From Torpedo marmorata (Eukaryota): a stretch of DNA of 64,000 bases. Position 1 is the first letter of the stretch, and the number at the start of each line of letters is the position of its first letter. Shown in pieces: positions 15,408-64,000 of the stretch. The DNA is taken from NCBI GenBank assembly GCA_977017645.1, contig OZ360236.1:50778001-50842000 (forward strand), read 5' to 3'. The position numbers and the translations under genes are program-made. The notes under the pieces were generated by a model, which had not been told where the DNA came from, did no database searches, and worked only from the letters and a program-made list of their open reading frames with translations.

Positions 15408-15644
15408 AAAAAATTTAGACAATACCCAGTCAATAAAGAAAATCACCCCATTGTTCCTGGACAAAGTAACAACAGGATTTATGGTTTCTCTTTTGTAACG
15501 ATCAATGTGTCATCATAGCCTGGGTAAACATTCCAAAATAGTCCCAAGGAAATGCCAATAGTCCCACGAATATTGGAGGTACCATCCTTTCAGCGAGGCT
15601 CTTACCTTTCATATCAACTGGAAAGATCTTGTGACATTTTTTAA

Positions 15645-17862: not shown

Positions 17863-17944
17863 TTTTTTGAATATTTTATTTAATTTTTTTGATACATGTA
17901 ATAATCCCCAATCCCCTCTCCCCCTTCCCCCCAAACCCACCCCC
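17863..17944 (-). mobile_element. Extremely truncated L1-type 3' tail inside the Penelope RT
   Basis: G-tract, AATAAA and polyA on minus strand; 16-bp TSD ctcccacagatacctc at 17847-17862 and 17945-17960. Confidence 0.8.
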
Positions 17945-18917: not shown

Positions 18918-18990
18918 GATATATCCTGCTTCTGCCCTTTCTGATTTTCCCTTGAAGAAGGGCTCAGGCCTGAAACGTCGGCAATATATC
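18918..18990 (+). ncRNA. Minimal hammerhead ribozyme motif (Penelope family 1)
   Basis: gatatat...cc-TTGAAGA-aGGGCtcagGCCT-GAAAC-GTC-ggcaatatatc; equivalent copies at 16254-16285 (-) and 21396-21427 (+). Confidence 0.7.
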
Positions 18991-19237
18991 TTTGTCTACT
19001 ATAGATGCTGAAAAGACTAGCTGAGTTCCTCCAGCATTTCGGTGTTTTCACTACTATGGTAACCTGGGAAAAACATAATTTGGACATTAAGTTTTAATTC
19101 ATTTAACAATTAAATAAAACACTTCTGTTTAATTGTTAAGGGAATATTGGAGAGAGATTTCTGACAGTTGAGAATCCTTCATCCGTGTTACAGAGAGTCT
19201 CAACTACATCAGAGAGATTGGGTGCAGACTGGGAGAT

Positions 19238-20511: not shown

Positions 20512-21498
20512 GTGGATCTCCCAGTGGGGACCCATTTCACTTTCCCATCCTATTCCCTTGCTGACATGTCTGTCCATGGTCTTATGCACTGCTAAACTGA
20601 GACCACCCGCAAATTGGAGGAACAACACCTCATCTTCCGTCTGGGCACCCTCCAACCAGATGGCATTAACATTGACTTCTTCAGTTTCCATTAAACCACC
20701 CCCACCCCTTCTTCTTCCCCTGTTGCCTTTCCCCCAGCTCTGTCTGTTTCTCTCTCGCAACCCAGAAAAGGAATCTCAGTTTTGTATGTGATGTCATGTC
20801 TGTACTCTGACAATAAATCTGAATCTGAATCTGACTCTTCTCTTTTCCCTCCATCTCTTTTCACGGAGCCAAAATCAATTCTCACCTCTCCTCTTATCAT
20901 ATCCAATTAACACCTTTTGTTGGTCTGGATTCCTCCCTGGCCAGTCCTCAGTCTTTATTGTTACACCTTCCTGTTCTTTGCTTATTCCTTATAGAAGGGC
21001 TCAGGCCCGAAAAGTCGGTAATATATTGGGGTAACGGGGTATTGAGAGAACAAATGTAACAATGTAACAATGTACATTGATGAGAATGTGTCGATATGAC
21101 TGACATTATGAGTGTAAAAAGACTTGAACTCTTTTCCTGTTTGTAATTTTAAAAAAAATTCTAGACAAGGTATGTCTAATGACACATTGGAGGATCAACA
21201 CCTCATCTTCCGACTGGGCAGCCTCCAACCGGATGGCATTAATATTGACTTCTCTGGCTATCGTTAAAACCCCTACCCCACCCCCTTGCTTCCCCCGTTG
21301 TCTCTCCATTCCCTCTCTCCTTTCGCATAGACATGATAAATTCTACCTAGTCCCTTATCACATCCAATTAACATCTTTTGTTGGTCTGAATTTTTCCTTG
21401 AAGAAGGGCTCAGGCCCGAAACGTCGGCAATATATCTTTGTCTCCTATAGATGCTGAATAGACCGGCTGAGTTCCTCCAGCATTTCGGTGTTTTTACT
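20509..21498 (+). mobile_element. Penelope GIY-YIG/terminal-repeat remnants in partial tandem (20509-21030; 21186-21498)
   Basis: DLPV.THF..DMSVHGLM..KLEEQHLIF; hammerhead motifs near 20988 and 21396; small Rex1-type tail insert ~20760-20833. Confidence 0.8.
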
Positions 21499-21785
21499 GA
21501 AGGCTTCCTGATTGTGTCAGAAGTTTGGATATGGAGCTCGGGTTGCAGATGAATCGAACAGGAGTCTATGAAGCTGCAGAGTCTGTGGGAGCACTGGAGG
21601 CGAATCCACAGACAGTGAGTCTGAAGCGACTCTCTTTTGCTTCTCTTTCTCTCGTACTGTAAGGGGTGGCGGCCAATACTAATGGCGACTCTTTGTCTGC
21701 TTTACCGTTGGCAAAAGTTAAACTATATCATGTATGTTACATTTTTAATGTATTGTTACGTAACAATAAAAGGAACCTTGGAACT
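21498..21785 (+). mobile_element. Old relative of the CpG-rich family (3' part)
   Basis: gactctcttttgcttctctttctct...tgtctgc...tcatgtatgttacatt...acaataaaaggaaccttg. Confidence 0.65.
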
Positions 21786-21852
21786 GGTTTGCACAGAATT
21801 ATTGAAGTCAGAAAAAAATCCTTCATCTCTGATGCAACTGCTCCTTAAAGAG

Positions 21853-28770: not shown

Positions 28771-29380
28771 CTTGCAAAATTCAGTAAAAATTGCCATTTA
28801 CTTGGACATCTGGAATTAAAAGCAGGGTCAAGCAATTCATCAAAAGTTTTCATGGACCCATGCAAATAAGACCTGTGACCTTGCTGAGGTGATAACGGAG
28901 ATGGCACAGTAACAAATTAGCATCGCAAAGAAGGATCTCTAATTTCAGAGATAACTATTCTTACCAAAAGAAACCTTGCAGCGAGGTTGATCTAACCCCA
29001 AACCATTTATTGACTTGTCAAGTGAATGATGAATGCTTATAGTGGTCCCAGATCACACTTTTATCTGTGATGAATGACCTCTGGTAGAGTGTTGTCATGG
29101 GTGAAAATGTCCACTGCAATCTTGGGTTAGGAAAGGAAGCATTGATCGGTAATCCTGCTGTTTTTGGATTCTTGGGAAGAGAATTAGGAGGGGTCCCTTG
29201 GATGCATCTCAAAACTCCTGTGACCACTGAAAGATGAGTAGCATTTCCCTCGTCATCCAATATTACAATGAAAAGTTCTCATTTCTGTGCACAGTCCAAC
29301 AATTTGTCAAATGATATCCCCAGTTTAACACCTTTCTCTTTCACTCTGTTAAGTTTCATCCTAATTTTCTCTTTTCCTCT

Positions 29381-29619
29381 CGGTGGCACAGTTAGCGTAG
29401 CAGTTAGCATGATGCTATTACAGCGCCAATGAACCAGGTTCGAATCCGGCGCTGTCTGCAAGGAGTTTATACGTTCTCCCCGTGTCTGTGTGGGTTTCCT
29501 CCGGCTGCTCTGGTTTTCTTCCACCCTTTAAAACTTTCCGGGGTAAAAGGCCCTTCCGGGCCACGAGCCTGTGCCTCCCAAATACCCCAATTATCCTACA
29601 ATCCCCCTACGTTTTGAAT
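29381..29619 (+). mobile_element. V-SINE with 3' half inverted
   Basis: 29381-29545 forward head and V-domain; 29549-29619 matches the minus-strand 3' half. Confidence 0.75.
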
Positions 29620-32939: not shown

Positions 32940-33222
32940 TTTAAAAATATTTTTTTAATATTTTATTTAAAATTTTAAATCACACGATAATACATGTTTA
33001 TAAAATACAAAATTACCAGAATACATGTGATATATTTTCACCCTCCCCTCCCTCCCTCCCCCCTCCCTAACCCACCCACCCCTACTACTCTAATAATATA
33101 GAAAGAAAGAAAAAAAAGAATAGAATTTGGAGAATGTCAATCTAAAAAAGAACTATACATTAATTTTATTGTGGAACACAGGTTTGCCAGTCAGACCTGA
33201 TATCAAGAGATCCTCAAATCAT
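32940..33222 (-). mobile_element. L1 3'UTR/polyA tail (D), similar to the 3'UTR of element A
   Basis: Shares gatttga.gatctct...tagattgacattctcc, G-tract and polyA with 41681-41954. Confidence 0.8.
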
Positions 33223-34988
33223 TGCTTCAAGAAATATGTTGCAGGAATGCAACCCTTTTTTAAAAAGTATATTTTATTTGTATTTTTATCAATAACAAAA
33301 ATAATACATCATCAAATATAATATTCGTCTGTTGACTATTATACTAAAAAACAACAACAAAATTACAAACAAAGGAAAACCCACCCACCCAATTCCCCCC
33401 TAAATGAAAGAAAAGAGAGGAATAGAATAAGAAAAGGTTGAAGTATAAAAGGAAAGAAGACGTTGGAGGCTCGTCGCCCACCCCGCAGGCTTAAATTACT
33501 TGGCATACTCGGATTTCTGAAGAGGAAATGGACATAGGTCCTGGAGGCGAGGGGGGGGGCCTGGTTATAGATTTACAGCCATGTGTTGTAAATATGGAGT
33601 CCAAATCTTTAAAAATATATCATATCTATTTCTAAGATTATAGGTAATCTTCTCAAGGGGAACACAATTGTACATTTCCTCATTCCATCTTGTCATACCT
33701 AGATGGGAATCAGACTTCCATGTGACCGCTATACATTTCCTGGCCACCCCCAATGCGATCTTCACAAATTTTATTTGAAATTTTGACAGCCTCATCTTAG
33801 GTCTTACGCCGGAGATATTGCCCAATAGAAATAATTCTGGGCGATGTGGGAACTGAATTTCGGTAATTTGTTCTAAGAGTTTCCCTAAGTCTGTCCAGAA
33901 AGGTTTTACTTTGGGGCATGACCAGGTTAAATGTAAAAACGTTCCTATTTCTTTGCTGCATCTAAAACATTTATCTGATATTTCTGATTTAAATTTATTC
34001 AATTTTTGCGGCGTGAGATTGCACCAGTCTGTATCTCACATTTACTGTGTTTTTCATACTGTCCCGACATAAGTCTGACTCCCATCTCTGTCTAGATCTA
34101 TGTAGCCCCTGTTTAGGGGTTCCTTTTTGTAGTAAAAGATAGGCTGCTGAAATAAACTTCTTTGTGATCCCCTTTCGAATGAAAGTCTCCACTTCAATTT
34201 ATCCCTTAAGTAAGATCTCAGCTGGAAATAGCAGAAGAGTGTATTAATCATAATACCATACTTATTTTTTAATTGTTCAAATGACATAAGTTGTAAAAAA
34301 TTACATTATAATTTATTACAAACATACAAAATGGAAAAGTTAATTGAAAGAACTAAACAAAGATATTATGAGTTAGGGGAAAGAGCACATAAAGTTTTGG
34401 CATGGCAATTAAAAAAAGATCAAGCTTCTAGAACTATAAATGCTATTAGGAAAAAGAATTCTAGGGAAATAACTTATAAAACACGAGAAATAAATGATTC
34501 TTTTAAGGATTATTATTTAAATTTATATAAATCTCAGATTGATCAAGATAACTCTAAAATTAATAGATTTTTATCTAAAATTACATTACCTAAACTAAAT
34601 ATTCAAAGTAGAGAAGCTTTAGATTTACCTTTCTCAATGAGGGAAGTTAATGGTTCTTACTTCCTTAACGAGTGGTAAATCTCCAGGTGATGATGGATTT
34701 CCAGCAGAATTTTATAAAGAGTTTAAAGATTTATTGATACCTCCGTATATGGATGTATTAAATCAAATTACGGAAACCCATTCATTATCGGACACATTTT
34801 TAAATGCAATAATTAGAGTTATACCTAAAAAAGATAGAGATGTATTGAAAACTGAATCATATAGACCTATTTCACTGTTAAATGTAGATTATAAGATAAT
34901 GGCAAAAATTTTAGCAAATAGAATGGCTAATTATTTACTAGATTTAATTCATGTAGATCAAGCTGGTTTTATTAAGAATAGATATTCA

Positions 34989-37264
34989 TTATGTGGCAAT
35001 TTAAACTGAGTGGTTCTTTTACATACAGTATAGTCTCCCTCTGTAAGAGGCATAATTTCACTTTTATCCCAATTTATCTTGTAACCAGAGACTTTTCCAT
35101 ATTCCTCCAGTTTGAAATGTAGTCTTTGCAAAAAAGTCTCAGGCTCTGTCAAGTCTATTAAAACATCATCCGCAAATAGACTAATTTTATGTTGCTCTTG
35201 ACCAACTGTAAATCCCTTAATTGCCAAATCACTTCTAATAGCCTCTGCTAACGGTTCTATAGCTAATACAAATAAAGCTGGTGACAATGGACACCCTTGC
35301 CGACTAGATCTTGTTAAACAAAACGAAGTTGATATTTGTCCATTAGTCACTACTTTGGCTTTTGGAGCATTATATAATGCTTTAATCCAATCTATATAAG
35401 TCTTCCCAAATCCAAATTTCTCCAAAACTTTGAATAAAAAGTCCCATTCCAACCTGTCAAAAGCTTTCTCTGCATCTAATGCCACTGCTACACTTAGTAC
35501 TTTTCTTTTTTGGGCTAAATGAATAATACTAAGTAACCTTGCTACATTGTCAGCTGCTTGTCTTTTTTTTATAAAACCTGTTTGGTCCATATTTACTAAT
35601 TTTGGCAAAAATTTTGTTATCCTATTTGCCAGAATTTTTGCCACAATCTTATAATCTGCGTTCAATAATGAAATTGATCTATATGATGAGGGTTTCAATG
35701 GGTCTCTATCTTTTTTTGGTATTACTGTAATTATTGCAGTGGAAAAAGATTCTGGAAGTGTATGGGTCACTGAAGCTTGCTGTAACATATCCATAAAAAT
35801 AGGAATTAATAATTCCTTGAATTCTTTATAGAACTCTGGTGGAAAACCATCCTCTCCCGGCGCTTTATTACTTTGTAATGAGCTAATTGCTTCCTTTACT
35901 TCCCTCTGCATAAACTGTGTACTTAATTCTAATCGCTCTTGTGTATTTAATCTTGGTAGATTTATCTGTGATAAGTATCCATCAATTTTACTATCGTCTT
36001 GTAGAGATTCTGATTTATATAAATCAGAATAAAAAATTTTTAAAGAATCATTTATTGTTTGAGGTTTATAACTAATAACATCAGTCTCAGTTTTAACTGC
36101 ATTGATTGTTCTTGATACTTGTTCTGTTTTTAATTGCCATGCTAATACTTTGTGTGCACGTTCACCTAACTCATAATATCTTTGCTTAGTTCTTATAATA
36201 GTTTTTTCCGTTCTATAAGTCTGTAACATATTATACTGTAGCTTTTTATTAGTTAATTGTCTACGTTTATCTATAGAACTCCTCTTTTGCAAATCTTTTT
36301 CTAAAATCGTTATCTCTTTTTCTAGTTGATCTATTTCATTCATGTAATCTTTTTTAATTTTTGAAGAATAACTTATAATCTGACCTCTTAAAAATACTTT
36401 TAACGTTTCCCATATTACAAATTTATCAGGCACTGAATTTAAATTTGTTTCACAAAATATTTGAATTTGCCTCCTTATAAAATCACAAAAATCTGTTCTT
36501 TTTAATAATAAAGGATTTAATCTCCATCTGTATACCGATTTCTCTATATCAGGTATAACCACTGTCATCAATAAAGGTGAATGGTCAGACAAAATTCTAG
36601 CTTTATATTCTGCTTCTAAAATTCTATCTTGCATTTGAGCTGAGACTAAAAATAAATCAATTCTAGAATAAGAATCGTGTCTAGTAGAATAAAATGAAAA
36701 ATCTTTATCTCTGCGATGAATTCTCCTCCAGGCATCAATCAAGTTTAAATCATTCATTAATACCAACGTAGCCTTTGCTGCTTTAGTTCTCCTCACACCT
36801 CTTGTAGATTTATCTAAAACCGGGTCTAAGCAGAAGTTGTAATCTCCCCCTATTATAATATTTTCATGCGCTTCCGCTATGTTAAGAAAGGTCTCTTGAA
36901 TAAATTTGTCATCATCCATATTGGGAGCATATATATTCAAAAAAGTCCAAAATTCTGCATATATCTGACAGTGAATCATTACATATCTCCCTGCAGGATC
37001 TGTCACAACATTCTGTATCTTAATTGGAAGATTATTTTTTATTAAAATTGCCACACCCCTTGCCTTACTATTAAATGAAGAAGCCATTACATACCCCACC
37101 CAGTCCCTTTTTAATTTCAGATGCTCTTTCTCTGTTAAATGTGTCTCTTGTAAAAAAGCCACATCAACACCCAATTTTTTAATATATGCTAAAACTCTTT
37201 TCCTCTTAATTGGTTCATTTATCCCATTAATATTAAAATTCAAAAATCTTAATATATTGCTCAT
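34989..37264 (-). pseudogene. L1 ORF2 endonuclease + RT portion (~760 codons, uninterrupted)
   Basis: Starts MSNILRFLNFNING; FLQETH, GGDYN, SDH, QGCPLSP and FADD motifs. Confidence 0.9.
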
Positions 37265-39607
37265 TTTTAATTATATTTCATTCCTGTTAATGTTATCTCT
37301 TCCATCCCAGACCCCTATCTCACTCTCTTTAACTTCTTTCTTCAGTCTCCATTGAGCCAACATGTGTCCCCTCCAGCAATTCACACAGATAAAAAAAAAA
37401 AATACAATTAATGAATACATTCCCCCCTCTCTACAAAAAAGAAAACATAATCTAACTACTTCCCCTCTAGCGCTATTAATATATACAGCGCTACCCCCCC
37501 TCTATTTTACGGGTCGCGACCTTGGCCGCGAAAATACACATGATTGTAGTAGAAATCAAGATCTCATCCTCCTCCCCCCAACCCTCCTGGTATAACATTT
37601 TTAACATAGACATTCTTTTATCATCAGTTTTACCAAATTACAAACTGATATATATCACTCCATTAACAAATTTTAAAAAACATTCATTTTTTAACGATCA
37701 TCCCTAATCAGCGGCAGTTCATTAGCAAATTCCTCTGCTAGAGTACAATCTGTAAAGAAATATCTTGGGGTTCGGACAGATAATAAATTAAAAAATCTAT
37801 ATAAATGGAACTATGTACCATTACTTAACAAGATTAAGGAGGATTTAGAAAAGTGGACTAATTTACCAATTACACTGATAGGAAGAGTTAACTGTATCAA
37901 AATGAATATATTTCCAAGGATACAGTATTTGTATCAGACTATACCTATTTTATTACCACAGGTTTTCTTTCAGGACTTAAATAAACAAGTGCGAAAATTT
38001 TTATGGAAAGGTAAAATGTCAAGAGTTTCAATGGAACGTTTAACATGGAAATATTAATTGGGGGGTTTGCAACTCCCTAATTTTAAGAATTATTACCGAG
38101 CGGCACAAATGCGATTTGTTGCTTCTTTTTTTGAAACTGAAGAAAGACCTGCGTGGGTTGGAATAGAACTAGGAGAAATAGGAGAAAAGGTGCCACAAGA
38201 ATTTATATACAAATGGAATTCAAAACTATTGACAGGTGTTAAAGAAACGCCGTTATTAAAACATTTGATTAATGTTTGGTATAAGGTTAATGATGACATA
38301 GGGTTGAAAGGAAGTATATCACCCAAAGTGCCTTTGATACAGAATAATCTTATACCATTTACAAAAGATAATCAATTTTTAAATACTTGGTCATTAAAAG
38401 GAATAAAGAAGATAGAAGATTGTTATGAAGGAAATCAATTGATGTCATTTATACAATTACGGAATAAATATGGAATACCCAATAATACTCTTTTTTGTTA
38501 TTTTCAACTAAGAGGTTATTTAAGAGAAAAACTAGGTCCAGATTTGTTGTTACAAGATTGTAGTGAGGTAGAAACTCTTATTAGGAAAGGAAATATTAAG
38601 AAATGTACTTCTATAGTGTATTCTTTGCTACAAAGGGGAGCTTTAAAACGAGGACTTCATAAATCTAAACAAAGATGGGAACAAGATCTTAATGTTACAA
38701 TTGATGAAAAAAGGTGGTCGGATTTATGTTTAGATAGTATGACTAATACTGTTAATGTAAGATATAGATTGGTACAATATAACTTTTTACATCAATTATA
38801 TTTTACACCACAAAAATTGAATAAGATAAATTCTACGATATCAAATAAATGTTTTAGATGTGGTGAAGAAGCGGGAACCTTTTTACACTCAACGTGGTCA
38901 TGTTCAAAAGTTTAAGGTTTTTGGATAGAGCTAGGAAATCGGTTAAAACAAATTACAGGTGTTACATTTCCACAGAATCCTGACTTATTTTTATTGGGAA
39001 ATGTGGAAGGAATTAGACCAAAATTGAAGTTATCTACATGGCAATTGAAATTTGTAAAAATTGCATTAGCAGTAGCAAGGAAATGTATAGCAGTAACTTG
39101 GAAATCGGATACAAATTTAAGTATGGATAGATGGAACTCAGAGATGCAGAGTTGTATTCCATTGGAAAGAATAACATATAACATGAGGAATAAATATGGG
39201 GTATTTTTGCAAATTTGGCGTCCATTTATCCAATTATTAGGAATGAATATTTAAATGTGTTGCTCTACATCCTAGACCCTGCTGACTCTCTTAAATTTAA
39301 ACTTAAAGAATGAATACTGTTGAATGTCTCGCATCGAGCCGTGGACCCGTACGGATGGTTTTTTTGATAAATGTCAATGTCTTCTCCTCTTTCTTCTTTT
39401 TTTTCTTTATTTTTAGTTAGGGGAGGAAGTAAGGGATGGGAGGGGTGGAGGGTGGGTTGTTTTAGTGAGGGTGGGTTGAGATGGGGTTAGAATCATGGTA
39501 ATACAAATTTTGTTTGTATTTAATTCATTAATGTCTATCATATATTTTGTACTATTTTGTATTATTGTGAAAAATTTGAAAACTTAAAATAAAATATATT
39601 AAAAAAA
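34989..39607 (+). mobile_element. L1 element B (inner) with 5' inversion
   Basis: 34989-~37758 on minus strand (ORF1 end, spacer, ORF2 up to FKLPHN); ~37758-39607 on plus strand (KYLGVRTD... to polyA); TSD aagaatagatattca at 34974-34988 and 39608-39622. Confidence 0.93.
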
Positions 39608-42600
39608 AAGAATAGATATTCAAAAGATAATATAGCTAGATTAATTAGTTTAATTAATTTACAAAAAAAGAAGGAAGATTTATCATTAGTATTAATGCTA
39701 GACGCCGAAAAGGCTTTTGATAGATTAGAGTGGAATTTTTTATTTAAGGTATTGGAGAAATTTGGTTTTGGAATTACATTTATTAATTGGATTAAAACTA
39801 TATATAAAGAACCATCAGCTAAAGTAGTTACAAATTTCTTCAAGATTTCCTTTGACTCGATCTACTAGACAAGGATGTCCTTTGTCACCAGCGTTATTTA
39901 TTTTGGCGATAGAACCTTTGGCAGAATTAGTTAGAAAAGATCCTAAAATAGTTGGTATTAAAGTTGGAATGGAAGAACATAAAATTAGTTTATTTGCAGA
40001 TGATGTATTGATATATATGACAAAATCTACTACATCTTTAGTACAATTGTCTGCGTTATTGAGAGAATATGGGGAAATATCTGGATATAAAATTAATTCT
40101 GATAAAAGTGAAATTATGGCATTATCACAAGGGGATTATAGTAAATGTAAAGAAATTACACAATTTAAATGGGCAAAGGAAGGAATTAAATATTTGAGAA
40201 TAAGGATTGACACAAAATTGGCTAATTTATATAAATTAAATTATTTACCATTATTTGTGAAAATAAAAAAGGATTTAGAAAATTGGAAAGATTTACCTAT
40301 AACTTTAATGGGAAGAGTAAATTGTATTAAAATGAATGTTTTTCCAAGAATTCAATATCTTATTCAATCAATTCCTTATGAAATTCCTCAAAAGTTTTTC
40401 AAAGATTTAAATTCAATTATTAGAAAATTTTTATGGAAAGGAAAGTTAGCAAGAGTAGGTATGGAAAAATTAACTTGGAATTATGAAATAGGTGGTTTAC
40501 AACTTCCTAATTTCCAAAATTATTATAAAGCAGCTCAATTAAAATTTGTTAATGAATTTTTTGATTCAACTAAATCTTCTGCTTTGATTAAAATAGAACT
40601 AAATAATATAGGAGAAGATTCCAAAGAAGAAGTTATTTATAAATGGGATTCTAAATTAATATCAACAAGAAAGAAAAATTCTCCTATTCTTAAACATTTG
40701 TTAGAAATATGGAATAAGATGGATAAGGAAATAGGAGGAAAAGGATTGATTTCTTCAAGGATGCCTTTATATCAAAATGGACTTATTCCATTTACTATTA
40801 ATAATCAATTATTTAAAATTTGGTTTCAAAAAGGAATTAAGAAAATAAATGATTGTTTTGAAGCTGGGAAATTTATTACTTTTCAAAGAATGAAAGATAA
40901 ATTTAATATATTAGATAATACACTTTTTGCTTATTATCAAATTAGAGCTTTTCTGATTGAGAAATTAGGTTATGCTTTGATTTTACCAAGACAGAATGAA
41001 TTAGAATTATTAGTTACTAAAGGAGATGTAAATAAATTTATTTCTCAAATGTATAAATTGTTTCAGAGGAAAATTCCTAAAGTAGGAATTCATAAATCAA
41101 GATTAAAATGGGAATTAGATTTGAATGTAATAATAGATGAAAATCATTAGAAAGAATTATGTAAATTAAGTATGACGAAGATTATTAACGTTAGATATAG
41201 ATTAGTACAATACCATTTTTTTCATCAATTATATTTAACACCTAAAAAACTAAAGAAATTTAATTCGACATTATCAGGTTTATGTTTTAGATGTAATAAA
41301 GAGGAAGGTTCTTTTGTACATTCTACATGGTTTTGTCCAAAAGTTTATGATTTCTGGTTGAAAGTTAAAAAAATTTTAGATAAGGTATTTAAGATTACAT
41401 TTCCAATGGATCCTATGATATTTTTGTTTGGAGATATTAGAAAATTTAGTATTAAGATGAAATTAAATATGTATCAAATAGAATTTCTGCGAATTGCTTT
41501 AGCTGTTTCAAAGAAATGTATTGCTATTACTTGGAAATCTGATCTCGATTTAGGGTTAGAAAGATGGCATGCAGAACTTCGTTCATGTATACCACTTGAA
41601 AAAATTACTTATAACTTACGGAATAAATATCATTTCTTTTTAAAAATATGGAGCCCATATATGAAAGCTGTTGGCTTAAGGATTTGAAGATCTCTGGACA
41701 TCGGATATACTGGCTACCTAACCTCCATAATAGAATTAGTTTATAGATGTATTTATTAGATTGACATTCTCCTTACCTTATCCTTTTCTTTTTCTTCTTT
41801 TTTTAAATTATTTTATTAGATTAGTGGGGTTGGGAGGGTTGGGGAGGGGAGGGAGGGAGGGGGGGGTGAAAATGTATCACAAGTATTTGATAATTTTATA
41901 TTTTATTTTATGTATTTTGTGATTTAAAATTTTTAAATAAAATAATAAAAAAACATGACATAAGTTGTCCCTGCTCATAGCAATCCTCGACACATCTGAT
42001 CCCTTTCCGGGACCAGGCGTCCAGGATCTTATTATCCATTGTAAAAGGTATACACCTATTTTGAGCCAGGTGCGTATTTGGAGATAACCTCCCCTTATTC
42101 CCAATTTGATCATTTATTTTATACCAGGTATCAATTATATGTTTCAACAGGGGGGTTTCTTTCACACCAGATATTAATTTTTTATCCATTTGTATATAGT
42201 CTTTTGCTATCTTCTCTCCCACCTTATGCAGTTCCATCTTTACCCAGGAAGGCTTGTCTTCCCCTTCAAAGAAGGAGGTGACAAATTTCATTTGGGCTGC
42301 CCAATAATATTTTTTGAAATCTGGAAGTTGTAAACCTCCCAGTTCATATCTCCATGTTAATTTTTCCGTGGAGACTCTGGCTACCTTACCTCTCCAAATG
42401 AACTTCCTGATATATTTATTTAATTCTTGAAAGAACCCTCGAGGCAATGGTATAGGTAGTGTTTGGAAAAGATATTGGATCCGTGGCAATATATTCATTT
42501 TTATACAATTGACCCTGCCAATAAGTGTTATTGGCAGTGCCGTCCATCTGTTAAGATCCTCTTCAGCTTTTCTAAGCAAGGGGAAGTAATTTAACTTATA

Positions 42601-44999
42601 CAAATCTTGTAAGTTGTTATTTGTTTTAATGCCTAAATATTTTATCCCATTTGCCGGCCACTTAAAATTTAAATTCCTTTGGTATTGAGTATAATCTCCA
42701 CCTGTAAGTGGCATAATTTCACTTTTGTCCCAATTTATCTTATAACCGGAAATTTTCCCATAATCTTCCAATTTTAAGTGCAATTTTTCTAATGAAACTG
42801 CTGCTTCTGTCAGGTATATCAGTACATCATCCGCAAATAAGTTAATTTTGTGCTCTTCCTGGTTAACCCTGAATTCCTTAATGTCTGGATCTCGCCAAAT
42901 AGCTTCTGCTAACGGTTCTATAACCAAAATAAAAAGAGCTGGAGACAGTTGACAGCCTTGCCTGGTAGATCTGGATAGTGGGAATGCTGAGGAAATTTGT
43001 CCATTAGTCACAACTCTAGCTTGGGGCTTATTATATAAAGCCTTAATCCAGTTTATAAAATTCTGTCCAAGTCCAAATCGATCCAGCACTTTAAATAAAA
43101 AATCCCACTCCACTCTATCAAAAGCTTTTTCTGCATCCAGGGCCACAGCGACACCTTGATACCCTCTTGATTGTGCCAGATGTATTATACTAAGCAATCT
43201 GCTTACATTATCTACTATTTGTCTTTTTCGTATAAAGCCTGTTTGGTCCATATTTATCAATTTTGGCAAAAAAACTGCCAGTCTGTTTGCCAAAGCTTTT
43301 GCAATGATCTTATAGTCTGAATTTAATAATGAAATAGGTCTATAAGAAGACGGCTTTAATGGATCCCTATCTTTTTTGGGTATCACTGTAATTATTGCTG
43401 TTGAGAATGATTCTGGGAGGGTATGTGTCTCGACCGCTTGATCCAACACCTCCATAAGTAGTGGTATCAAAAGATCTTTAAATTCATTGTAAAATTCAGG
43501 TGGAAATCCATCCTCCCCCAGAGATTTATTAATTTGCAATGAACCCAGTGCCCCCTCCATCTCTACTTGAGTAAAGGGGGCATTGAGCTCCCTCTGTTCT
43601 TCTAAATCTAGATTTGGAAGATCCAATTGTGACAGGAATCCTTCAATTTCACTAATATTCCTTTGAGATTCTGATTCATATAGTCTAGTGTAAAATTGTT
43701 TAAAGGCCTCATTAATATCCTGTGGTTTATAGGAAATCCTGTCTGTTTCCATTTTGATCGCATTAATCGTTCTTGAGACCTGTTCTGTTTTCAACTGCCA
43801 TGCTAAGACCTTTTGGGCTCTTTCCCCTAGCTCATAGTATTTTTGTTTAGTTCTGGTTATCATTTTCTCCATTTTATATGTTTGTAATGTATTATACTTG
43901 AGTTTTTTATTAATTAATTTTCTACGTTTTTCCTCTGAGCCTGACTTTTGAAGGTCTTTTTCCAAATGAGATATCTCGTGTTCTAATTCATCCACCTCCC
44001 TTGTATATTCCTTTTTCATCTTTGTAGTGTAACTGATTATTTGTCCTTGCAAATATGCTTTTAAAGTATCCCAGATAATAAATTTATTTGTAGTAGAAGT
44101 ACAGTTGGTCTCACAGAACGTTGTAATTCCTTTTCTCATAAAATTATGAAACTCCTGTCTTCTCAACAGCCCTGAATTTAATCTCCATCTATACACCGTC
44201 TTTTGTTTATCTGGCATTGTAATTTTTAATATCAGAGGTGATAGTAGTCTTGCTTTATATTCAGCTGCCACAATTCTACTCTGTAAATGAACCGATATCA
44301 AAAATAAATCTATCCTGGAGTATGAATCATGTCTGCATGAATAAAAAGAATAGTCCCTTTCCCTTGGATGGAGTCTTCTCCAGGCATCCATTAAATTCAG
44401 CTCCTTCATTAACTGCAAAGTAGCTTTAGCTGCTTTCGTCCTTGTGATTGTTCTTCCTGACTTATCTAGAACCGGATCCAGACAAAAATTAAAGTCTCCA
44501 CCCACTATAATATTTTGCTGTGCATCAGCCAATTTCAAAAATGTTTCATGTATAAATTTCTCATCATCCGTGTTGGGAGCATACAAATTCATCAGGGTCC
44601 AGGGCTTTGAATATATCTGACAGTGAACCATTATATACCCACCTGAAGGGTCTGCAATTATGTCTTGCGCTTTAATTGGAACATTTTCCCCTATTAAAAT
44701 TGCTACTCCCCTTGCTTTTGAGTTAAATGAAGATGCTATGACCTGACCCACCCATCCTCTCTTCAATTTTTGGTGTTCTTTTTCTGTTAAGTGAGTTTCT
44801 TGAAGGAAGGCCAGGAGTGCCAATGACTCTTGACCGACTACCATCCAATCCCATCAGTAATGTCCATCTATCTGGCTTCCGAATGGTGATGGAAGGAGAG
44901 GCACTGTTGCAGGACACTCAGTGTCAAAGCTCGTAGAACCCCTTTAAAGAAAGCGTCGGTCAAGATGTGATGAGCTTCATAACATCAGGACAAATGATT

Positions 45000-45120
45000 C
45001 TCATCAGTGATTCTCACTGGAGTTTATATCCCTCCCGATACCCATTACAAACAGACACTTGCAGTCCTGCATGATGTGGTCAGTAAACAAAAGCCGGCCC
45101 ACCCTCACACTTTCCCAGAT
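45000..45120 (+). mobile_element. Rex1-type endonuclease fragment
   Basis: ILTGVYIPP...LHDVVSKQ..AHP. Confidence 0.55.
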
Positions 45121-45518
45121 GCTCACACAGTCTCCTGTATTGTCTTCACTGATTCTTTGGAATCCCTGGCTATAATCACTCAAAATGGAGAAGGAGCACT
45201 CGGGAGATAACCGAACACCTTACGTTTCTACATTATGAGAATGTAGGGACCAAGAGCTCTTGGTCATCCTCAATCCTGATAGTCTAAAAAGAAATAAGCA
45301 TGTTCAGAACACATAAATTCTGCAGCCATATTTGAAATTCATTCTATATATTTATTTAGCCACTTCCATTACCTCAGCATGTTTGAAAGTTGTTCCCAGC
45401 TAAATGAGTAAGCAAACGTGCTACAATTCTAGTTAAGGGATGTACACCACCAAGGTGTCACAGCAGATTGAGGTAAATAACCCCATATCTGTTGTTACTT
45501 GAATTACAGATACAGGTA

Positions 45519-45736
45519 CAGTATACCCCGCTTTACGAAACTAGAGCGTTCCTATGAAACCCTTCATAAGCCGAAATGGAGTAAAGCGAAGACCCATTCA
45601 CTACTATTGAAGGCTATTTTCATAAAAGCGAAAACCCATTCAAAACCCATTCAAACCCTTTCGTAAAAGCAAACACAGGTTTCTTTGTAAAAGCAAATTT
45701 TCGTAAAGCGAGTATTCATAAAACGGGGTTTACCTG
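45519..45736. mobile_element. Tigger/pogo-like MITE
   Basis: TA-cagtataccccgctttacgaa ... ttcataaaacggggtttacctg-TA inverted repeats. Confidence 0.75.
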
Positions 45737-46071
45737 TATTGGTCAGGCCACCCGTACATCTGGTACAATGGGATTTTTTTTTAATTCTTGCTCTGAACTG
45801 AAACTTTTTTTCACTGCTGCAGTTTAAATTTCTCCTAATAAAGTCTGACCTTTCATATTATAAATATTTACAGGGTAATGTTTTGTGTTTGCTCTCAAAA
45901 AAATAATTTTGCTTCTCATGAACTAGTGTCGTAGGAAGGAGTAAATTAAACCAACAATGTTTGGATGTACTTCTGGAGCTTTTATTTCACAGTTTCCTGC
46001 CTCCAACCACCCTGCCTGCTCACTCAGTCTTTGTCCCATCTCATGTATTTTTTTACCAATAAACCAAAGTA

Positions 46072-46413
46072 TAGGCAGTCCCCAGGTTACGAACGTCCGA
46101 CTTACGGACAACTTGTTCTTACGAACGGACTACACGCAGCTTCCGGTGCGTCGGCTCGAGTAAGGAGAAAGCCGTCTGCCATTTTAAGTTGGATCACGTT
46201 GCCGTTAACATTGTGTTGAGTGTGCCTACTTCAAGAAATTAACTCCAGTAGTTTTATATGCATAGAAAGGTAAAATATATACTATATACTAAGACAAACA
46301 TTTGACTAACTGACGCTAAATAAGAACCGTATGTACCTGTTCCGACTTACCTACAAATTTGACTTAAAGGCAGACTTAGGAACGGATCTCATTCATAACC
46401 CAGGGACTGCCTG
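46072..46413. mobile_element. Tigger/pogo-like MITE
   Basis: aggcagtccccaggttacgaa ... ttcataacccagggactgcctg-TA inverted repeats. Confidence 0.8.
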
Positions 46414-46599
46414 TAATCACAGATTTTGAAAAAAAGCTCTTTTTTTTTGCAGCCCCTATTTTTTCCCCCAAGAAGCTCAGAGCAGTTTCAGGATTTTGTA
46501 AGAAGATGGAGGTGTTTTACCTGCAAGGCTAAAACCCATGTTATAATGGACCAATGACAGAAGCTCCTCTGTTAACCGGGAGGAAGTCTATCCTTAGTG

Positions 46600-46848
46600 T
46601 GAGAAACACAAAAGCTGCACATGCTGGAGTCTTGAGCAGACGAAGAATTGATGGAGTAACTCAGCAGATCAGTCAGTATCCATGGTTCGAAATGGTTAGT
46701 CAACATTTCAAGTTAAAATTCTTTATTAAGAACAGACTCCCACATTTTTCCAGTCTCAGTAAAGGTCTTTGGCTTCAAACATCGACCATTGTTTTTCTTC
46801 CACTGATGCTGCTTGACTTGCTGAGTTCCTCCTCCAGCAGAATGTGTT
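46600..46848. mobile_element. Old palindromic mini-Penelope
   Basis: Inverted arms (aactcagca / tgctgagtt) with two degenerate hammerhead remnants. Confidence 0.55.
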
Positions 46849-46916
46849 TAGCTTGGATGGAGAAATTTTGTGCAGAGGTGAAAAATCTCTGATTGGGGTC
46901 ACAATTACATGTGTGG

Positions 46917-47788
46917 ATAAGATGGGAATCAGACTTAGGTATAGTAATTGATGAAGAATTATGGTCAGAATTGTGTCAGAATAGTATGTTAATTACTATA
47001 AATGTACGTTATAAATTGGTCTCCTATAATTTTCTTCATCAATTATATTTGACTCCACAGAAATTACATAAATTTAAACCAGAATTATCAGAGATGTGTT
47101 TTAGATGTGGAACGGAGTTTGGTTCTTTTTTATATTCGACAAGGATGTGCTGTAAGTTGAGGCAATTTTGGCATAATCTCTGTGACATCTTATCTAAAGT
47201 TATTGGAGTTACTCTAATTTTAGATCCAGAAATATGCCTTTTTGGAAATTTTACTACTATTAAGGACACCTTAACCAGATATCAAATTATATTTTTGGGA
47301 ATAGCTTTTTGTGTGGCTAGAAAGTGTTTAATGACAACTTGGAAGTCAGATTCCCCATTGTCTATTGATAGATAGACCTCAGAAATAAATAGTTGTATTC
47401 CATTGGAGAAAATTACGTATAACATTAAAAACAAACAGGTTATTTTTTATAAATTTTGACAACTTTATTTAGATTATTTGGGGTCAGGATAAATTAAATC
47501 AAAGAAGATTTGTTATTAATTTGTTTTGGGTTCTTTCACGCGATAAGCCCGGTTGCCGGGAAGCCTTGGAGTTTTTCTTTCTTTTATATATTTGAAATTA
47601 GTAATTATATAAACATTGTCGACCATTTGTTTTGTTTAGTTTTTTTTTCTTTGGGGGGGAGGTTTGGGGTAATTGTTTTTTTTAATTATATATGTTACTT
47701 TTATTGTATTACTATATAATGTGATATCTGTTTTTGAAGTATTTTGTTTCATTGTTTGTTAAAAATTAAAATAAAATATTTAAAAAAA
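46917..47788 (+). mobile_element. L1 3' fragment
   Basis: RWESDLG..NVRYKL..CFRC..TWKS; polyA; degenerate TSD acaattaca...gtgg at 46901-46916 and 47789-47804. Confidence 0.85.
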
Positions 47789-53629: not shown

Positions 53630-54012
53630 ATTTATGGGAGAGTCACAAACAAGGGGACAAAGCCACAGAATCTTTTAGGTTTGAGGGATGTGGAGATCTC
53701 TTCTCTCAGAGAATAGTAAATCTGGAATTCTCTGAACCTGAGAGTGTTGGAGGCCAAATCAATAGATATAGTTAAGGTGGAGATTGATCAATATTTTAAA
53801 GATTGGGAATTGAGATTTTGGGGAACTAGCACAGAAGATGATTTGAAATGAGCATAAATCAGCCATTTTCATATGGAATGGCAGGACACTCATCTTATTT
53901 TTGTTTGTCTTCTTTAATTTTTGTCCATCCCTTATCACATCTGCCATGATCATATTGAATGGTGAGGCAGGGATAAGGGGCCCGGTGGCCGAGCCCTGCA
54001 TCTATTTTCTTA
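53630..54012 (+). mobile_element. Old CR1 3' tail(s)
   Basis: ttctctcagagaatagtaaatctggaattc...atgatcatattgaatggtga. Confidence 0.6.
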
Positions 54013-54870
54013 GTAAAAATACAATGCTGGAGAAACTCAGCAAGTCAAACAGTGTACTTTATGTAGCAAAGATAAAGATACATAACCAACTTTTCAGGCT
54101 TGAGCCCTTCATCAAGGATTGAACAAAATGTAGGCAGGTGCCTGAACAAAATAGTGGGGGGGGGAGAGGCAGGGGTAGGAGCACAGTCCCACAGGCAGGA
54201 GATAATGGGTGGATAAGGGAGGGAGGGCACACCAGCAAACAGGGGAAGGGGGGAATAGCCCTGTGAATGGAGAGGGAAGAGGTTGGAGAGTTGGAGGAAA
54301 GAAGACAGAGGGATTGGGAAAGAAGGAGAATGGGGAGTAGGCTAGCGGAAACCAGAGAAATCAATGTCAATGCCATCCAGTTGGAGAGTGCCCAGACAGA
54401 AAATTAAGTGTTGCTCCTCCAATTCACGGGTGGCTTTAGTTTGACAGTACATGAGGCCATCGACAGATATGTCAGCACGGGAGTGGGGCGCAGAATTGAA
54501 ATGGTTGGCCACTGGGAGATCCCCGTCATCGATGTGGACAGAGCGAAGGTGCTCAGCGAAGCAATCTCCCAGTCTGCGTCCAGTATCTCCGATGTAGATA
54601 AGGTAAAGGTAAAGGTTCCATTATTGTCACGTAATACTACATTTAGAATGTAACATACATGAAATTCTTTAATTTTTGTCTGCCGTAAGGCAGACAGAGA
54701 GTCGTTACTTTGTCCAGCGCCCCTCACAGAAACCTACAGCACCTAGTGTTCCTAGGCGGTCTCTCCTCCAAGTACCGACCAGTTCTGTGCCTGCTTAGCT
54801 TCCGAGATCAGACAATCCCAGTCGTATTCAAGCTATTGGTGCTGTTCCAGTCTCTCCGATGTAGAGAAAC
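54013..54870 (-). mobile_element. Penelope 3' fragment interrupted by the 5S SINE
   Basis: GIY-YIG remnants; hammerhead-like motif at 54081-54117. Confidence 0.85.
54599..54845 (-). mobile_element. 5S rRNA-derived SINE, copy 2
   Basis: Close reverse-complement homolog of 2558-2812; 20-bp TSD tccagt(a/c)tctccgatgtaga at 54579-54598 and 54846-54865. Confidence 0.9.
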
Positions 54871-56108: not shown

Positions 56109-56949
56109 TCAAGATTCAAGATTCAATTTATTGTCATTGTAATAAAAATGTGTCATATTACATGAAATTGCTTTTGCCTGCTGAAAGGCAGACAGATTCA
56201 CCATCGGCAGAAATTGCCTGAAGCGCCTCTTACAGTCAGAGAAAGAGAAGCAAAAGAGAGTCCCCCCAGAGTCACCGAGTGTCCGTAGATTCGTCTCCAG
56301 CGCTTCCGCAGCCTCCACAGCCACACAGAGTCCAGTCCAAACCATTGGCAACCCAAGCTCCAGATCCGAACCTCTGACACGGTCAGGAACCCTTCAGCAC
56401 CCTCAGCACCCCCTCGCATCCCGGTTCCGATACCTGGTACCCCTTCAGCCAGTTCGAGCCAGTCTCCAGCAGTCCGCAGCCCGGTGCGAGTCTCCCGACA
56501 GCAGTCTCCAGCAGCCCACTGGCTCCGCGGGTTCCTCGCCTCGAGTTGCCAGCAGCCCGCCGCTACAGTCTCAGAGACCCTCACTGGTCCGCCGCTGTGG
56601 TCATCGTCCTGTGGGTCGTCTCCTCCGCTTCTCCTTCTCAGACGGGGGTGATCTTCCCGCCCTCTGGTGCCCTGCTCCAGTCCTCTGCTTCCCCGGAGTC
56701 TGCAGCCCCTCGTGGCTGCTGCCGATAATAGGCGCCGCCATCTTGGGCGCAGACCCCGCGGTCGCGGGATTTCAAATAAAACCACCGTCGGCTCCCTCAA
56801 CGGGCCGTTCAAAGCCCGTGCAGAGCCGATGGCAGTCGACTGGGCAGCTGGACCCTGCGGGAGCGCTGCATCTCTGCTCCTCGCTCCCCACAGGTCCGCA
56901 CCAGCGGCAGCGCTGCCGCTACAGTGGCTCCAGCAGCGCCGCCATTTTC
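56109..56949 (-). mobile_element. CpG-rich non-autonomous retroelement, apparently full-length
   Basis: 5' end AAAATGGCGGCG; internal AAGATGGCGGCG; (ATCTTGA)n tail. Confidence 0.85.
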
Positions 56950-57392: not shown

Positions 57393-57651
57393 TTTTTTTT
57401 AAAAATTCAGATATACAGCCCGATAACAGCCCTTTCGGCCCACGAGCCCGTGCTGCCCAATTACACCCAATTGACTTACATCCCCGGTACATTTTGAACG
57501 GTGTAAGGAAACCGGAGAGCACCCAGAGGAAACCCACGCAGACATGGGGAGAACGTACAAACTCCTTACAGACAGTGCGGAATCGAACCCCAGACCCAAT
57601 CGCTGGTGCTGTAGCAGCGCTGCGCTAACCGCTACGCTAACCATGCCGCCC
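57393..57651 (-). mobile_element. V-SINE-like element
   Basis: Homolog of 4788-5023 with intact B-box-like ggttcgattcc. Confidence 0.88.
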
Positions 57652-58119
57652 AGACCCCTTATTTCATCCAGTTCTTGCACTATGGAACATATTTCATCTT
57701 ATGATGATATCTTTCCCTCTTTTGCTATCCTCTTCTGACCGAGATTCAAAATTCTTCAATAACCCCTCTCACACTTCAAGCCATTTCATTTTCAACAACA
57801 ACCGGACCCTACACTTTGAATATCATCACTCTCTGCACCTGAGCTTCGGATATGTCCTTTTCGCAGCTGAGGATCCTCATCACAGTTTTTGAAGTGATCA
57901 TTGATTTTCTCCCCACTTCCCATGGTTTTCCCCAGTTTTCTATTTTGCTCTGAAATCACCTGCTTTTGAGCAAGCTTGTGTCCATCATTAGTAATTATTC
58001 ATAATTAGTAATCCAGACTGATCATTTCAAAAAATAGTGTTGTGAATGACAAGACACAGCCTTGCTTCATAGCAAAGTCAATGCTCAACTCATTCCATCC
58101 CCACAGCCAATTTCCTCAA

Positions 58120-61251: not shown

Positions 61252-63338
61252 TTTTCTTTTTAAAATATTTTTATTGAGTTTAACATATAAACATGTATAC
61301 AGAAAAAAAAATATTAAGAAAAACACTTAAAATGTCATCTCATATTCACACATATATAAAGAAACAACAAATGCAACTGCATTAACCAGTTCTTAAATTG
61401 AAATGAGAGACAAGTTATGAATATAGTGTAAATTCATGTTAAAGCTCATATTGTAAATTATTAACTAAAAGAATAATATAAAAGAAAAAAAATTTCCAAA
61501 ACAAAAAAATCCTAAAAGCTAAAACTAATCTAACCCCTTCCTCTAATCAAGGTTATCTTTATACACAAAAAAAAAGAAAAGAAAAATGGATCAGATAGCA
61601 ACCTCCAGACATCAGACAGAGACTCCTCGGGACATTCACAGTTATTAATTCTTCCAATCAGGATAGTATTCTATGAATCGGCCCCATACCTTTAAAAATT
61701 GAAACTTTCTATCTTTAATATTACATCTAATTTTCTCCAAGCTCAAATAAGACATTACATCCTGTAACCACTGTATATGGGTAGGTGAGGAATCATCTTT
61801 CCATTTCAATAGAATTGCTCGTCTGGCTATCAACATGGAAAAGGCTAAAACTTTCTCCTGAGATGCGGACAGAAGTATATTTGGTTCACGTGAAAAACCA
61901 AACATAGCAATTATCGGACATGGTTCTATTTTAATCTTAAAAATCGTCGATAAAGTTTGGAAAATGTCTTTCCAAAATCTCTCTAAATTTGGGCATTCCC
62001 AAAACATATGAATTAGTGAGGCTTCAAAAATTTTACACTTCTCACATAGTGGATCAATATCTGCATAAAAACAAGATAATTTAAGTTTGGACATATGGAT
62101 TCTACGTACCACCTTAAATTGTAATAAACAATATCTTGCACAGAATGAAGAGGTGTTAATCAAGCTAGAGTATGATAGCAGTCTTCATCTGAAAATGTTA
62201 TATTCAAATCACATTCCCAGTCATTCTTAATCCCCGCCATAGAGTCTGATCTTATGTCCAATAAATTGTTATATATGCATGATGTTAATCCACGCTGGAA
62301 AAAAACCGTAAATTAAAAAGTGAACCAAGGAAGTTAGTATTTGAGATTCGAGGAAAATCTGATAGCTTGGACTGAACAAAATGTCTAATTTGTAAATATC
62401 TAAAAAAATGTCTATTAGTAAGATTAAATTTTTCAACCAGTTGTTCAAAAGAGGCGAAATTATCTCGAATAAAAAGATCATTATAGCTATGAATTCCCAA
62501 TCTATACCATTCCTTAAATCCTGCGTCCAGCACAGACGGCTGGAAAAGGTGATTATCTATAATAGGACTAGCCAGAGAAAAACTATTAAAACCGAAAAAT
62601 TTTCTAAATTGAGCCCATATTCTCAATTTATATCTCAATAATGGATTATGAGTTAAATTGGAAAAGGAAAATGGTAAAAAGGATCCCAAAATTGCCAACA
62701 TAGATGTCTTTTTTGAAAACTTCAGTTCCATTTCCACCCATGAGGGGCGAATCTCCAACTTATCAAAATGCAATAATAAAAGCAAATTACGAATATTAAT
62801 CACCCAATAATAAAATCTAAAATCTGGAAATGATAACCCTCCATTTCTTTTAATCTTTTGAAGATGGGTTTTGTTTATGCGAGGTTGTTTTCCCTGCCAT
62901 ATATAAGAAGAAAGGACCGAATCTAATGAAGTAAAAAAACCTTAGGAATAAAAATTGGTGGAGCTTGGAAAAGATACAAACATTTAGGCAAAATATTCAT
63001 TTTAATCGAATTGATACGATCCATCATTGTAATAGATAAGGGGGACCAACCCAATAGTAATGGTTTAATCTTATTAAGTAGTACCCAGAAATTCTCTTTC
63101 ACTAAATTTTTATGACTTTTTAAAATTATGATTCCTAAATATTGTAATTGATCATTCACTATTTTAAATGGAAAATTGGGATAACTAACAAGAGGTCCCC
63201 TTAAAGGCAGTAATTCACTCTTATGTAAATTTAATTTGTAACCTGAAAATTGACTGAATTGAGTAAACAAAGTTAATATATTTGGTATAGAAACCTCAGG
63301 ATTTGAAATAAAAAGCAATAAATCATCTGCATAAAGAG
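61252..63338 (-). mobile_element. L1 (divergent family) 3' portion
   Basis: SLYADDLL..SGYKLN..KSE; CEKC..HMFWEC knuckle; polyA. Confidence 0.88.
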
Positions 63339-64000
63339 ATTCAAGATTCAAGATTCAAGATTCAATTTATTGTCATAGTAATAAGACAGTGTCATATTCC
63401 ATGAAATTTCTTTTTGCCTGCTGCAAGGCAGACAGATATGCCACCGGCAGAAATTGCCTCAGCGCCTCTAACATTCCTTACAGTCAGAGAAAGAGAAGCA
63501 AAAGAGAGTCCCCCAGAGTCACCGAGTGTCCATAGATTCGCCTCCAGCGCTTCCGCAGCCTCCGCAGCCACACAGAGTCCAATCCAAACCATGGCAACCC
63601 GAGCTCCAGATCCGAACCTCTGACACGGTCAGGGCGCCCTCGGCACCCCCTCGCATCCCGGTTCCGATACCTGGTACTCCTACAGCCAGTTCGAGCCAGC
63701 CTCCAGCAGTCCGCAGCCCGGCGTGAGTCCCACGACAGCAGTCTCCAGCAGCCCACAGCCTCCGTGGGTTCCTCGCCTCGAGTCACCAGCAGCCCGCCGC
63801 ATGAACTGGTCCTTCAGCCTCAGAGCCCCTCACTGGTCCGCCGCTGTGGTCACCGTCCCGTGGGTCGTCTCCTCCGCTTCTCCTTCTCAGACGGGGGTGA
63901 TCTTCCCGTCCTCGGTGCCCTGCTCCAGTCCTCCGCTTCCCCGGAGTCTGCAGCCCCTCGTGGCTGCTGCCGGTTAAAAGGCGCTGCCATCTTGGGCGCA
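63339..64000 (-). mobile_element. CpG-rich non-autonomous retroelement abutting/inserted in L1 RT (runs off window)
   Basis: Highly similar to the 19629 and 56109 copies. Confidence 0.85.

Follow-up and report, generated by a model that had tools for sequence, protein, structure and literature searches.

A CpG-rich, non-coding retroposon with a Rex1-type tail, abundant in the Torpedo marmorata genome and probably transcribed by Pol II

What kind of element is the GC- and CpG-rich unit at 56 kb of the 64,000-nucleotide stretch analysed here (the window), which enzyme copies it, and which polymerase reads it? The earlier note, made from the window alone, had taken it for a Pol II-driven, non-autonomous LINE parasite that disperses CpG-island-like promoters. 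The unit is a real, ~860-bp non-coding retroposon on the minus strand, and that it belongs to an abundant parasite of Rex1 type is very probable. Judged from sequence, the best explanation as a whole is, in our view, likely to be a Rex1-mobilised retroposon with a CpG-rich head transcribed by Pol II. The reference copy is organized as follows.

56109-56948, minus strand: full-length copy of the young group, nearest to subfamily A2 by sequence comparison
56937-56948, minus strand: 5' terminal YY1/TISU-like motif AAAATGGCGGCG, of the same type as the starts of full-length Rex1 LINEs
56906-56943, minus strand: 13-bp 5' hairpin, predicted in 4/4 subfamily consensuses (z -2.8 to -4.2)
56892-56902, minus strand: degenerate B-box-like site, with two mismatches in the consensuses (positions T55 and A58) and three in the 56-kb copy
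56228-56936, minus strand: GC/CpG-rich head and body, without conserved ORF, Pfam or Rfam match
56778-56781, minus strand: further T4 run in this copy
56733-56745, minus strand: second YY1-type motif CAAGATGGCGGCG, whose core CAAGATGGC is kept in 41/43 young full-length copies
56252-56257, minus strand: conserved TCTTTT run of Pol III terminator type upstream of the tail, present in 26 of the 27 scorable copies among 30
56205-56227, minus strand: start of a ~120-nt 3' module common to the element and to 5S- and tRNA-headed sisters
56134-56197, minus strand: Rex1-C/F-like 3' recognition region, made of hairpin 1, an A-run and hairpin 2 (56166-56134)
56109-56132, minus strand: AATAAA (56132-56127), then a (TTGAATC)n 7-mer tail

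The CpG-rich character noticed at the outset is confirmed by a GC content of 60% and a CpG observed/expected ratio of 0.77, against 0.44 for the whole window; the element carries 70-75 CpGs. The 3' hairpin, the AATAAA and the 7-mer tail are all in place, the hairpins numbering two. The start and inner motifs that had been quoted are exact in the 56-kb copy, but the other young copies differ: the 19.6-kb copy begins TAATGGCAGTG, and the inner site of the element mostly reads CAAGATGGCAGCG, so that both motifs together have the quoted form only at 56 kb. The ATG within the terminal motif of the 56-kb copy opens an ORF of 8 codons only.

Four further pieces of the family lie in the window.

19627-20466 (end approximate), minus strand: young copy of subfamily A1, inside a 5'-truncated Rex1-B fragment
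63337-64000, minus strand: young copy of subfamily A1, running past the window end to ~64197, its tail adjoining an L1-like RT fragment
21498-21790, plus strand: 3' fragment of the Old subfamily, tail type GGAACCTT
14435-14680 (start approximate), plus strand: strongly diverged 3' piece of an older, related copy

The three young copies, 84-92% identical to one another, are thus those already seen, with starts refined from 19629, 56109 and 63339 to 19627, 56109 and 63337. Of the two old copies proposed, the piece at 21498 does belong to an older subfamily, on the plus strand and with a different tail, whereas the stretch 13769-14680 is mostly Penelope: about 13829-14407 is a GIY-YIG fragment of that type, with a GIY-YIG match under the Pfam cut-off. 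Similarly, the location described as within Rex1 and at an L1 RT applies to the 19.6-kb copy and to the tail of the 63-kb copy, respectively, but not to the 56-kb copy, for which the self-comparison of the window gave neither a Rex1 nor an L1 match. The 19.6-kb copy splits its Rex1-B fragment exactly, without target duplication and with extra bases at the 5' junction, where a 12-bp tandem duplication and additional bases are found at 20458-20482; these possibly stem from template jumping at integration. The surroundings are rich in other repeats. Nested Penelope-type fragments (RT and GIY-YIG) occur in both orientations at 13829-14407, 16178-19057, 20510-21400, 21851-24260 and 54012-54601, and AT-rich DNA at 32947-47450 and 61645-63354 holds several stacked L1-like copies that point in opposite directions and have frames as long as 981 codons. 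A short element with inverted ends starting TAACCCTTTGGAC, at 15641-16050 and 1608-1806, is possibly a non-autonomous DNA transposon.

Across the 6.2-Gb host genome, a DNA search with the 56-kb copy returned 11,553 candidates; the 40 that were scored have 88-91% identity to the query, self excluded. An exact 26-nt tail motif has 25,475 genome matches and an exact 26-nt inner motif 27,002; since the reversed-pattern controls of both gave 0 matches, the abundance of the element is far above chance. The exact tail is present in 12/30 inner-motif loci and the exact inner motif in 16 of the 21 tail loci that are long enough, and correcting for these frequencies puts the tails at about 64,000 and the near-full copies at about 35,000, rough figures from small samples. 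This suggests a copy number of roughly 35,000-65,000, divided among four or more subfamilies. Taken in order of position, the first 30 tail loci comprise 16 full-length and 14 5'-truncated copies, two of the latter just 39-52 nt long, and the same tail is reached in all 30 inner-motif loci. The 5' end is sharp: among the 30 best matches, which favour full-length copies, 27 begin within 7 nt of it and have unrelated flanks. The unit therefore has the hallmarks of a retroposon, being dispersed and multi-copy, with 5' truncation, an intact 3' end and a simple-repeat tail. No target-site duplications were detected in 37 copies: the longest shared word of 3-8 nt is like that of the control (3-10 nt), which argues against a regular target duplication.

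A tree of 51 copies resolves subfamilies A1, A2, B and Old, and a single copy falls between the groups. Leaving CpG sites aside, copies of the young groups differ from their subfamily consensus by 2.3-2.5% and those of Old by 7.8%. The Old consensus is 81-84% identical to the young ones over the whole length and begins at the same place; the subfamilies overall are 81-97% alike. Six loci (L093, L102, L149, L177, L202 and L229) hold intermediate subfamilies that have other tails or sequences, and the clan is wider than the four groups built here, with a changing tail repeat. Contigs from 4 of 9 listed runs, from three organisms, span the whole element and end at both its ends; they record its presence in those three organisms only and have no bearing on transcription.

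The tail points to the copying enzyme. The genome holds several LINE families that end in TGACAATAAA followed by a microsatellite; they are 3.2 kb long, with a single ORF containing RVT_1 and PF09004, and are labelled Rex1-A to -F. We take them to be Rex1/Babar from their hallmarks and from the label used in the earlier note, rather than from a reference tree. RSg-1 also belongs with Rex1. The last 68 nt of the element resemble Rex1-C with mean z values of 5.5 (A1), 4.1 (B) and 4.4 (Old), and Rex1-F with mean z values of 4.0-5.3, while no similarity was detected to Rex1-A, -B or -D (z -0.8 to 1.1). Alignment and folding give a two-hairpin fold common to the element tail and Rex1-C. Its distal stem reads UCAG/CUGA in 9/11 Rex1-C copies, UCAU/AUGA in 11/20 element copies and UCAU/GUGA in 11/14 tails of the sister-SINE type, so that it is changed on both sides between Rex1-C and the element, as a compensatory pair. 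Rex1-A and -B, too, are closed by a UCAU/AUGA stem, which makes this stem common to the clade as a whole. The element is thus likely to be copied by a Rex1 enzyme, the likely partner being one Rex1 lineage similar to Rex1-C/F, as judged from a gapped match of ~70 nt. No LINE with an identical tail appeared among 30 tail loci and 25 loci of a second set, nor a parent with identical tail or head among 7 Rex1-A, 20 Rex1-C, 20 Rex1-B and 25 Rex1-C 5' loci; the full-length parent comparison took in Rex1-A, -B and -C, and left out Rex1-D and -F.

The 5' end provides a second, shorter link. Rex1-A begins AAGATGGCGG (start reached in 4/7 fetched copies), Rex1-B AGATGGCGCC (3/20 copies) and Rex1-C AAATGGCGCC, so that full-length members of all three families open with A(A/G)ATGGCG, the ATG of which is the ORF start. 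The first nucleotides of the element match this YY1/TISU-like start, the complete motif (AARATGGCG) being kept in 13 of the 43 young full-length copies and ATGGCG in 32. Beyond the motif, the first ~730 nt have no similarity to Rex1-A, -B or -C, and an extended 5' part taken from the partner LINE is therefore absent in the comparison with these families. The check proposed in the earlier note, whether the ends match a Rex1/Babar LINE, thus gives a match for the tail, with z values of 4-5.5 to Rex1-C/F, and one limited to the motif at the 5' end. In the Old subfamily, the 30 nt before hairpin 1 are also similar to the opening ~35 nt of Rex1-C and -B (p 0.002-0.03 with a window chosen post hoc, 0.01-0.21 over the whole element), and in the young subfamilies this likeness of the module start to the Rex1 5' end is mostly not significant. 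Given the post hoc window and the mostly negative young subfamilies, a bipartite mini-Rex1 is a hint, not a result.

The start motif of Rex1-A, -B and -C resembles TISU, a YY1-bound element described as active in both transcription and translation (PMC2518114). The full-length Rex1-type LINEs (L061-L067, L224, L228, L239, L241-L265) have practically no 5'UTR, with the ORF start ~3 nt from the end. An ORF start at the very 5' end in a TISU/YY1-like context suggests a joint start of transcription and translation in Rex1. One Rex1-C 5' end recurs with an identical flank on about 20 small contigs (L245-L264), suggesting a multi-copy tandem or segmental array.

These observations leave room for a Rex1-mobilised element that has no promoter of its own. 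A few master loci would be read from flanking host promoters, the fixed 5' end would be produced by RNA processing or by a host-set start, and the AAGATGGCG motif would act on the RNA, in translation or RNP assembly. Such a role would suit both the use of the motif as ORF start codon in Rex1 and the double activity of TISU, as well as the 8-codon ORF from the first ATG, which is kept in 4/4 consensuses; against it, the CpG-rich head is maintained across subfamilies that differ by up to 19%, and 41/43 young full-length copies preserve the second YY1 site. The sequence just ahead of the ATG is not constant among copies, and ribozymes are reported to trim 5' ends in several LINE clades (PMC5786205), but Rfam returned no ribozyme or other known RNA family for the element, in a search that also missed a control tRNA-SINE, and about half of the position-ordered copies reach the same 5' nucleotides. 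We regard a promoterless element as unlikely, though it is the strongest of the alternatives.

Which polymerase reads the element bears on the preferred reading, a Rex1-mobilised retroposon with its own CpG-rich, Pol II-transcribed head. T4+ runs occur 2-5 times in each of the 37 full-length copies and are missing from 8 of 11 copies of the 5S-headed sister, in which the T5 loop of the Old subfamily is also broken. AATAAA is present in 29/30 young copies and in 17/17 scorable Old copies (of 20), and is replaced by AATAAT in 11/11 5S copies; its frequency was scored on the 30 inner-motif loci, a count on the 37 full copies having been discarded as circular. The TCT4 run is described as an efficient Pol III terminator (PMC8466645) and CAAGATGGC as the YY1 site found where mammalian L1 elements begin (PMC5381506). 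A G stands 4 nt before the ATG in 21/37 copies, a possible cap trace that may simply be templated. Taken together, motifs and terminators argue that the element is probably transcribed by Pol II, and a YY1-type promoter of its own is plausible.

Alternatively, the element could be an unusually long but ordinary Pol III SINE, with a head that derives from tRNA but has diverged too far to be recognised. As a control we used a tRNA-derived SINE of the window, presumably akin to HE1/V-SINE, with intact A and B boxes.

57406-57654, 4786-5023, 8214-8446 and 29378-29618: copies of the control tRNA-derived SINE

In the box consensus, weight lies on positions T55 and A58. Within the first 60 nt of the consensuses, A sites lie at +5 and +14 and a B site at +47, each with two mismatches; they make up a degenerate pair at tRNA-like spacing that is found in only 19/1000 shuffles, yet T55 and A58 are absent from the B site in 4/4 consensuses, whereas both boxes of the control are perfect and the element has none intact. 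No match to a 5S or 7SL head was found with Rfam, which did detect the 5S sisters; a tRNA head was not matched by Rfam or ARAGORN either, but both missed the control tRNA-SINE too. The earlier statement that there is no tRNA or 5S head therefore stands for 5S and for intact boxes, and is weaker than stated for tRNA, given these missed controls and the two-mismatch pair. The same tail is used by tRNA- and 5S-headed sisters, as such a SINE would have it, but the head folds into a single long hairpin rather than a cloverleaf, the T4 run at about nt 170 and the TCTTTT run at about nt 700 would halt Pol III before the tail, and the length is 860 nt. The element thus combines the lack of an intact Pol III promoter head with a terminator ahead of the tail, contrary to a classical SINE, and we hold this second alternative to be decidedly improbable.

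A coding element can be discarded. Subfamily A has a frame of 178-181 codons that begins at the second ATG, but 1-nt indels shorten it to 34 codons in B and 46 in Old, it reaches at least 175 codons in just 6 of the 43 young full-length copies, and the four long frames of the element have no Pfam match; the absence of an ORF common to all copies, noticed in the window, hence extends across subfamilies. Identity with a LINE 3'UTR is ruled out by the sharp 5' end and the lack of an attached RT: no RT ORF lies upstream in 30 position-ordered tail loci or in 25 loci of a second set. The variant in which a rare LINE has the element as its long 3'UTR, with copies always cut at one place, is very hard to credit: its LINE-like 5' truncation and the mere 30-60 loci read among tens of thousands would give it room, but no common upstream sequence and no RT was seen in the 30 best matches, 30 tail loci and 30 loci with the inner motif, the Old subfamily has the identical start point, and that start fits a LINE start motif. 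With a tail of Rex1 lineage, no RT upstream and no intact A/B boxes, the view of the element as a non-autonomous LINE parasite holds; the two findings named beforehand as fatal to it, a consensus running 5' into an RT ORF and A/B boxes, were not encountered, the boxes not in intact form.

The proposal that the element disperses CpG-island promoters fares less well. Although 42/43 young full copies have CpG-island composition, only 2/8 old ones do, and in 48 position-ordered copies transitions at CpG amount to 8.9% against 2.2% at other C/G sites, transversions being equal. CpG sites thus decay fourfold faster than other C/G sites, which indicates germ-line methylation. Germ-line methylation probably affects most copies, which lose their island with age.

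The last ~120 nt of the element are also found behind a 5S head and behind a tRNA head.

2553-2802, plus strand: 5S rRNA-headed sister SINE with the same 3' module
54600-54846, minus strand: second copy of the 5S rRNA-headed sister SINE
L131:1571-1644, L138:1629-1702 and L156:1327-1400: tRNA heads of a sister SINE with the same 3' module

The tRNA head was seen in 3/30 loci, two called Thr (Thr-TGT) and one Ser. The 5S-headed SINE, also present among loci L131-L160, has a 3' module of the Old type and one tail pattern in common with the tRNA sister, with 1,420 exact matches. T-runs and AATAAA may have been lost just once in the 5S and tRNA sisters, given that both carry a single common tail variant.

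A scheme for the favoured Rex1-mobilised, Pol II-transcribed element would then run as follows. In a few unmethylated master copies, the CpG-rich head would direct Pol II transcription that begins on the motif or directly ahead of it. The single endonuclease-RT protein of Rex1 would bind the RNA in trans at its two 3' hairpins and its repeat tail and would prime at a nick (TPRT) without regular target duplication, and the new copies would mostly be methylated and then decay. The last ~120 nt would serve as a module that can be exchanged, perhaps a mini-Rex1 that arose by internal deletion, fitted also with 5S and tRNA-Thr heads. A bolder and rather doubtful extension is that this mini-Rex1, made from the first ~30 and the last ~75 bases of the LINE, is a portable module joined to tRNA-Thr, 5S and 730-nt YY1/TISU CpG-island heads, and that the 730-nt form, present in tens of thousands of copies, is a true vertebrate Pol II 'SINE' and the first of the Rex1 clade, some of its copies being unmethylated and serving as new gene promoters.

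As it stands, the element is a selfish repeat. Roughly 30-50 Mb of CpG-rich repeat would confound the annotation of CpG islands and promoters in this genome. Since tRNA-, 5S- and GC-rich-headed forms share one tail in one genome, they offer a natural comparison of the effects of promoter type, and T-runs and AATAAA are kept in the GC-rich-headed form and lost in the others. The element also offers a test of the model in which SINE bodies arise from bipartite LINE fragments. Short LINE parasites devoid of Pol III promoters have been described as rare and limited to few clades, to which it would add Rex1 and a high-copy vertebrate case.

ORF-less LINE derivatives presumed to be transcribed by Pol II are described for RTE, Ingi, Vingi and R2 (PMC5786205), and CR1 adds Persaeus, derived from CR1 Zenon, with up to about 40,000 copies (PMC6740152). 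Rex1 is mentioned in neither source (0 occurrences in the available text of PMC5786205 and PMC6740152), and the literature, taken apart from Repbase, Dfam and supplements, yielded neither an account of this family nor one of an element that derives from Rex1 and lacks a Pol III promoter. Parasites of this kind being known for other clades, a Rex1 partner would be new, Repbase and Dfam aside.

Like the SIDEs (RIME, NARTc, Bov-A, RTESINE, the Vingi derivatives and the R2 SIDEs), the element is ORF-less, has no Pol III promoter, ends in a LINE 3' end and is presumed to be transcribed by Pol II (PMC5786205), and it shares a high copy number with Persaeus (PMC6740152). Unlike these, which are described as internally deleted and as matching the parent over a long 5' stretch, it shares with its partner a ~10-nt motif and a weak ~30-nt match ahead of the tail (PMC5786205, PMC6740152). 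With the Rex1/Babar LINEs it has in common a conserved 3' region followed by an oligonucleotide repeat (PMC6274825) and, with the Rex1 families of this genome, the start motif and the TGACAATAAA end, but it is 0.86 kb long against 3.2 kb and encodes neither endonuclease nor RT. The salmonid SINEs Hpa I, SlmI and OS-SINE1 are likewise non-autonomous with a fish LINE (RSg-1) tail, and their tRNA and 5S heads on one tail type parallel the two sisters of the element, which itself differs from them in having no Pol III head (PMC3747384). The likeness to the mammalian L1 5'UTR is limited to the motif and to description, with no further homology seen: both are CpG islands of similar size (70-75 CpGs against a mean of 62 in L1) and begin with a CAAGATGGC YY1-type site, which in the element lies nearer the 5' end and is present twice, and the island of the element is not followed by an ORF (PMC5381506).

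Close in design, too, are BuceSINE and ManaSINE2 of birds, in which a GC-rich head of no known source sits on a LINE tail (PMC4844689, PMC7245038). Like them, the element is non-coding and LINE-mobilised, has a GC-rich head without a small-RNA promoter, and has its tail in common with tRNA- and 5S-headed sisters; unlike them, with their bipartite AviRTE tail, its partner is Rex1 and not RTE, its ~730-nt head opens with the LINE's own YY1/TISU-type start, and its three head types occur in one genome (PMC4844689). The element works like the known SIDEs and BuceSINE and, by the features compared here, is neither a classical SINE nor a SIDE in the strict sense.
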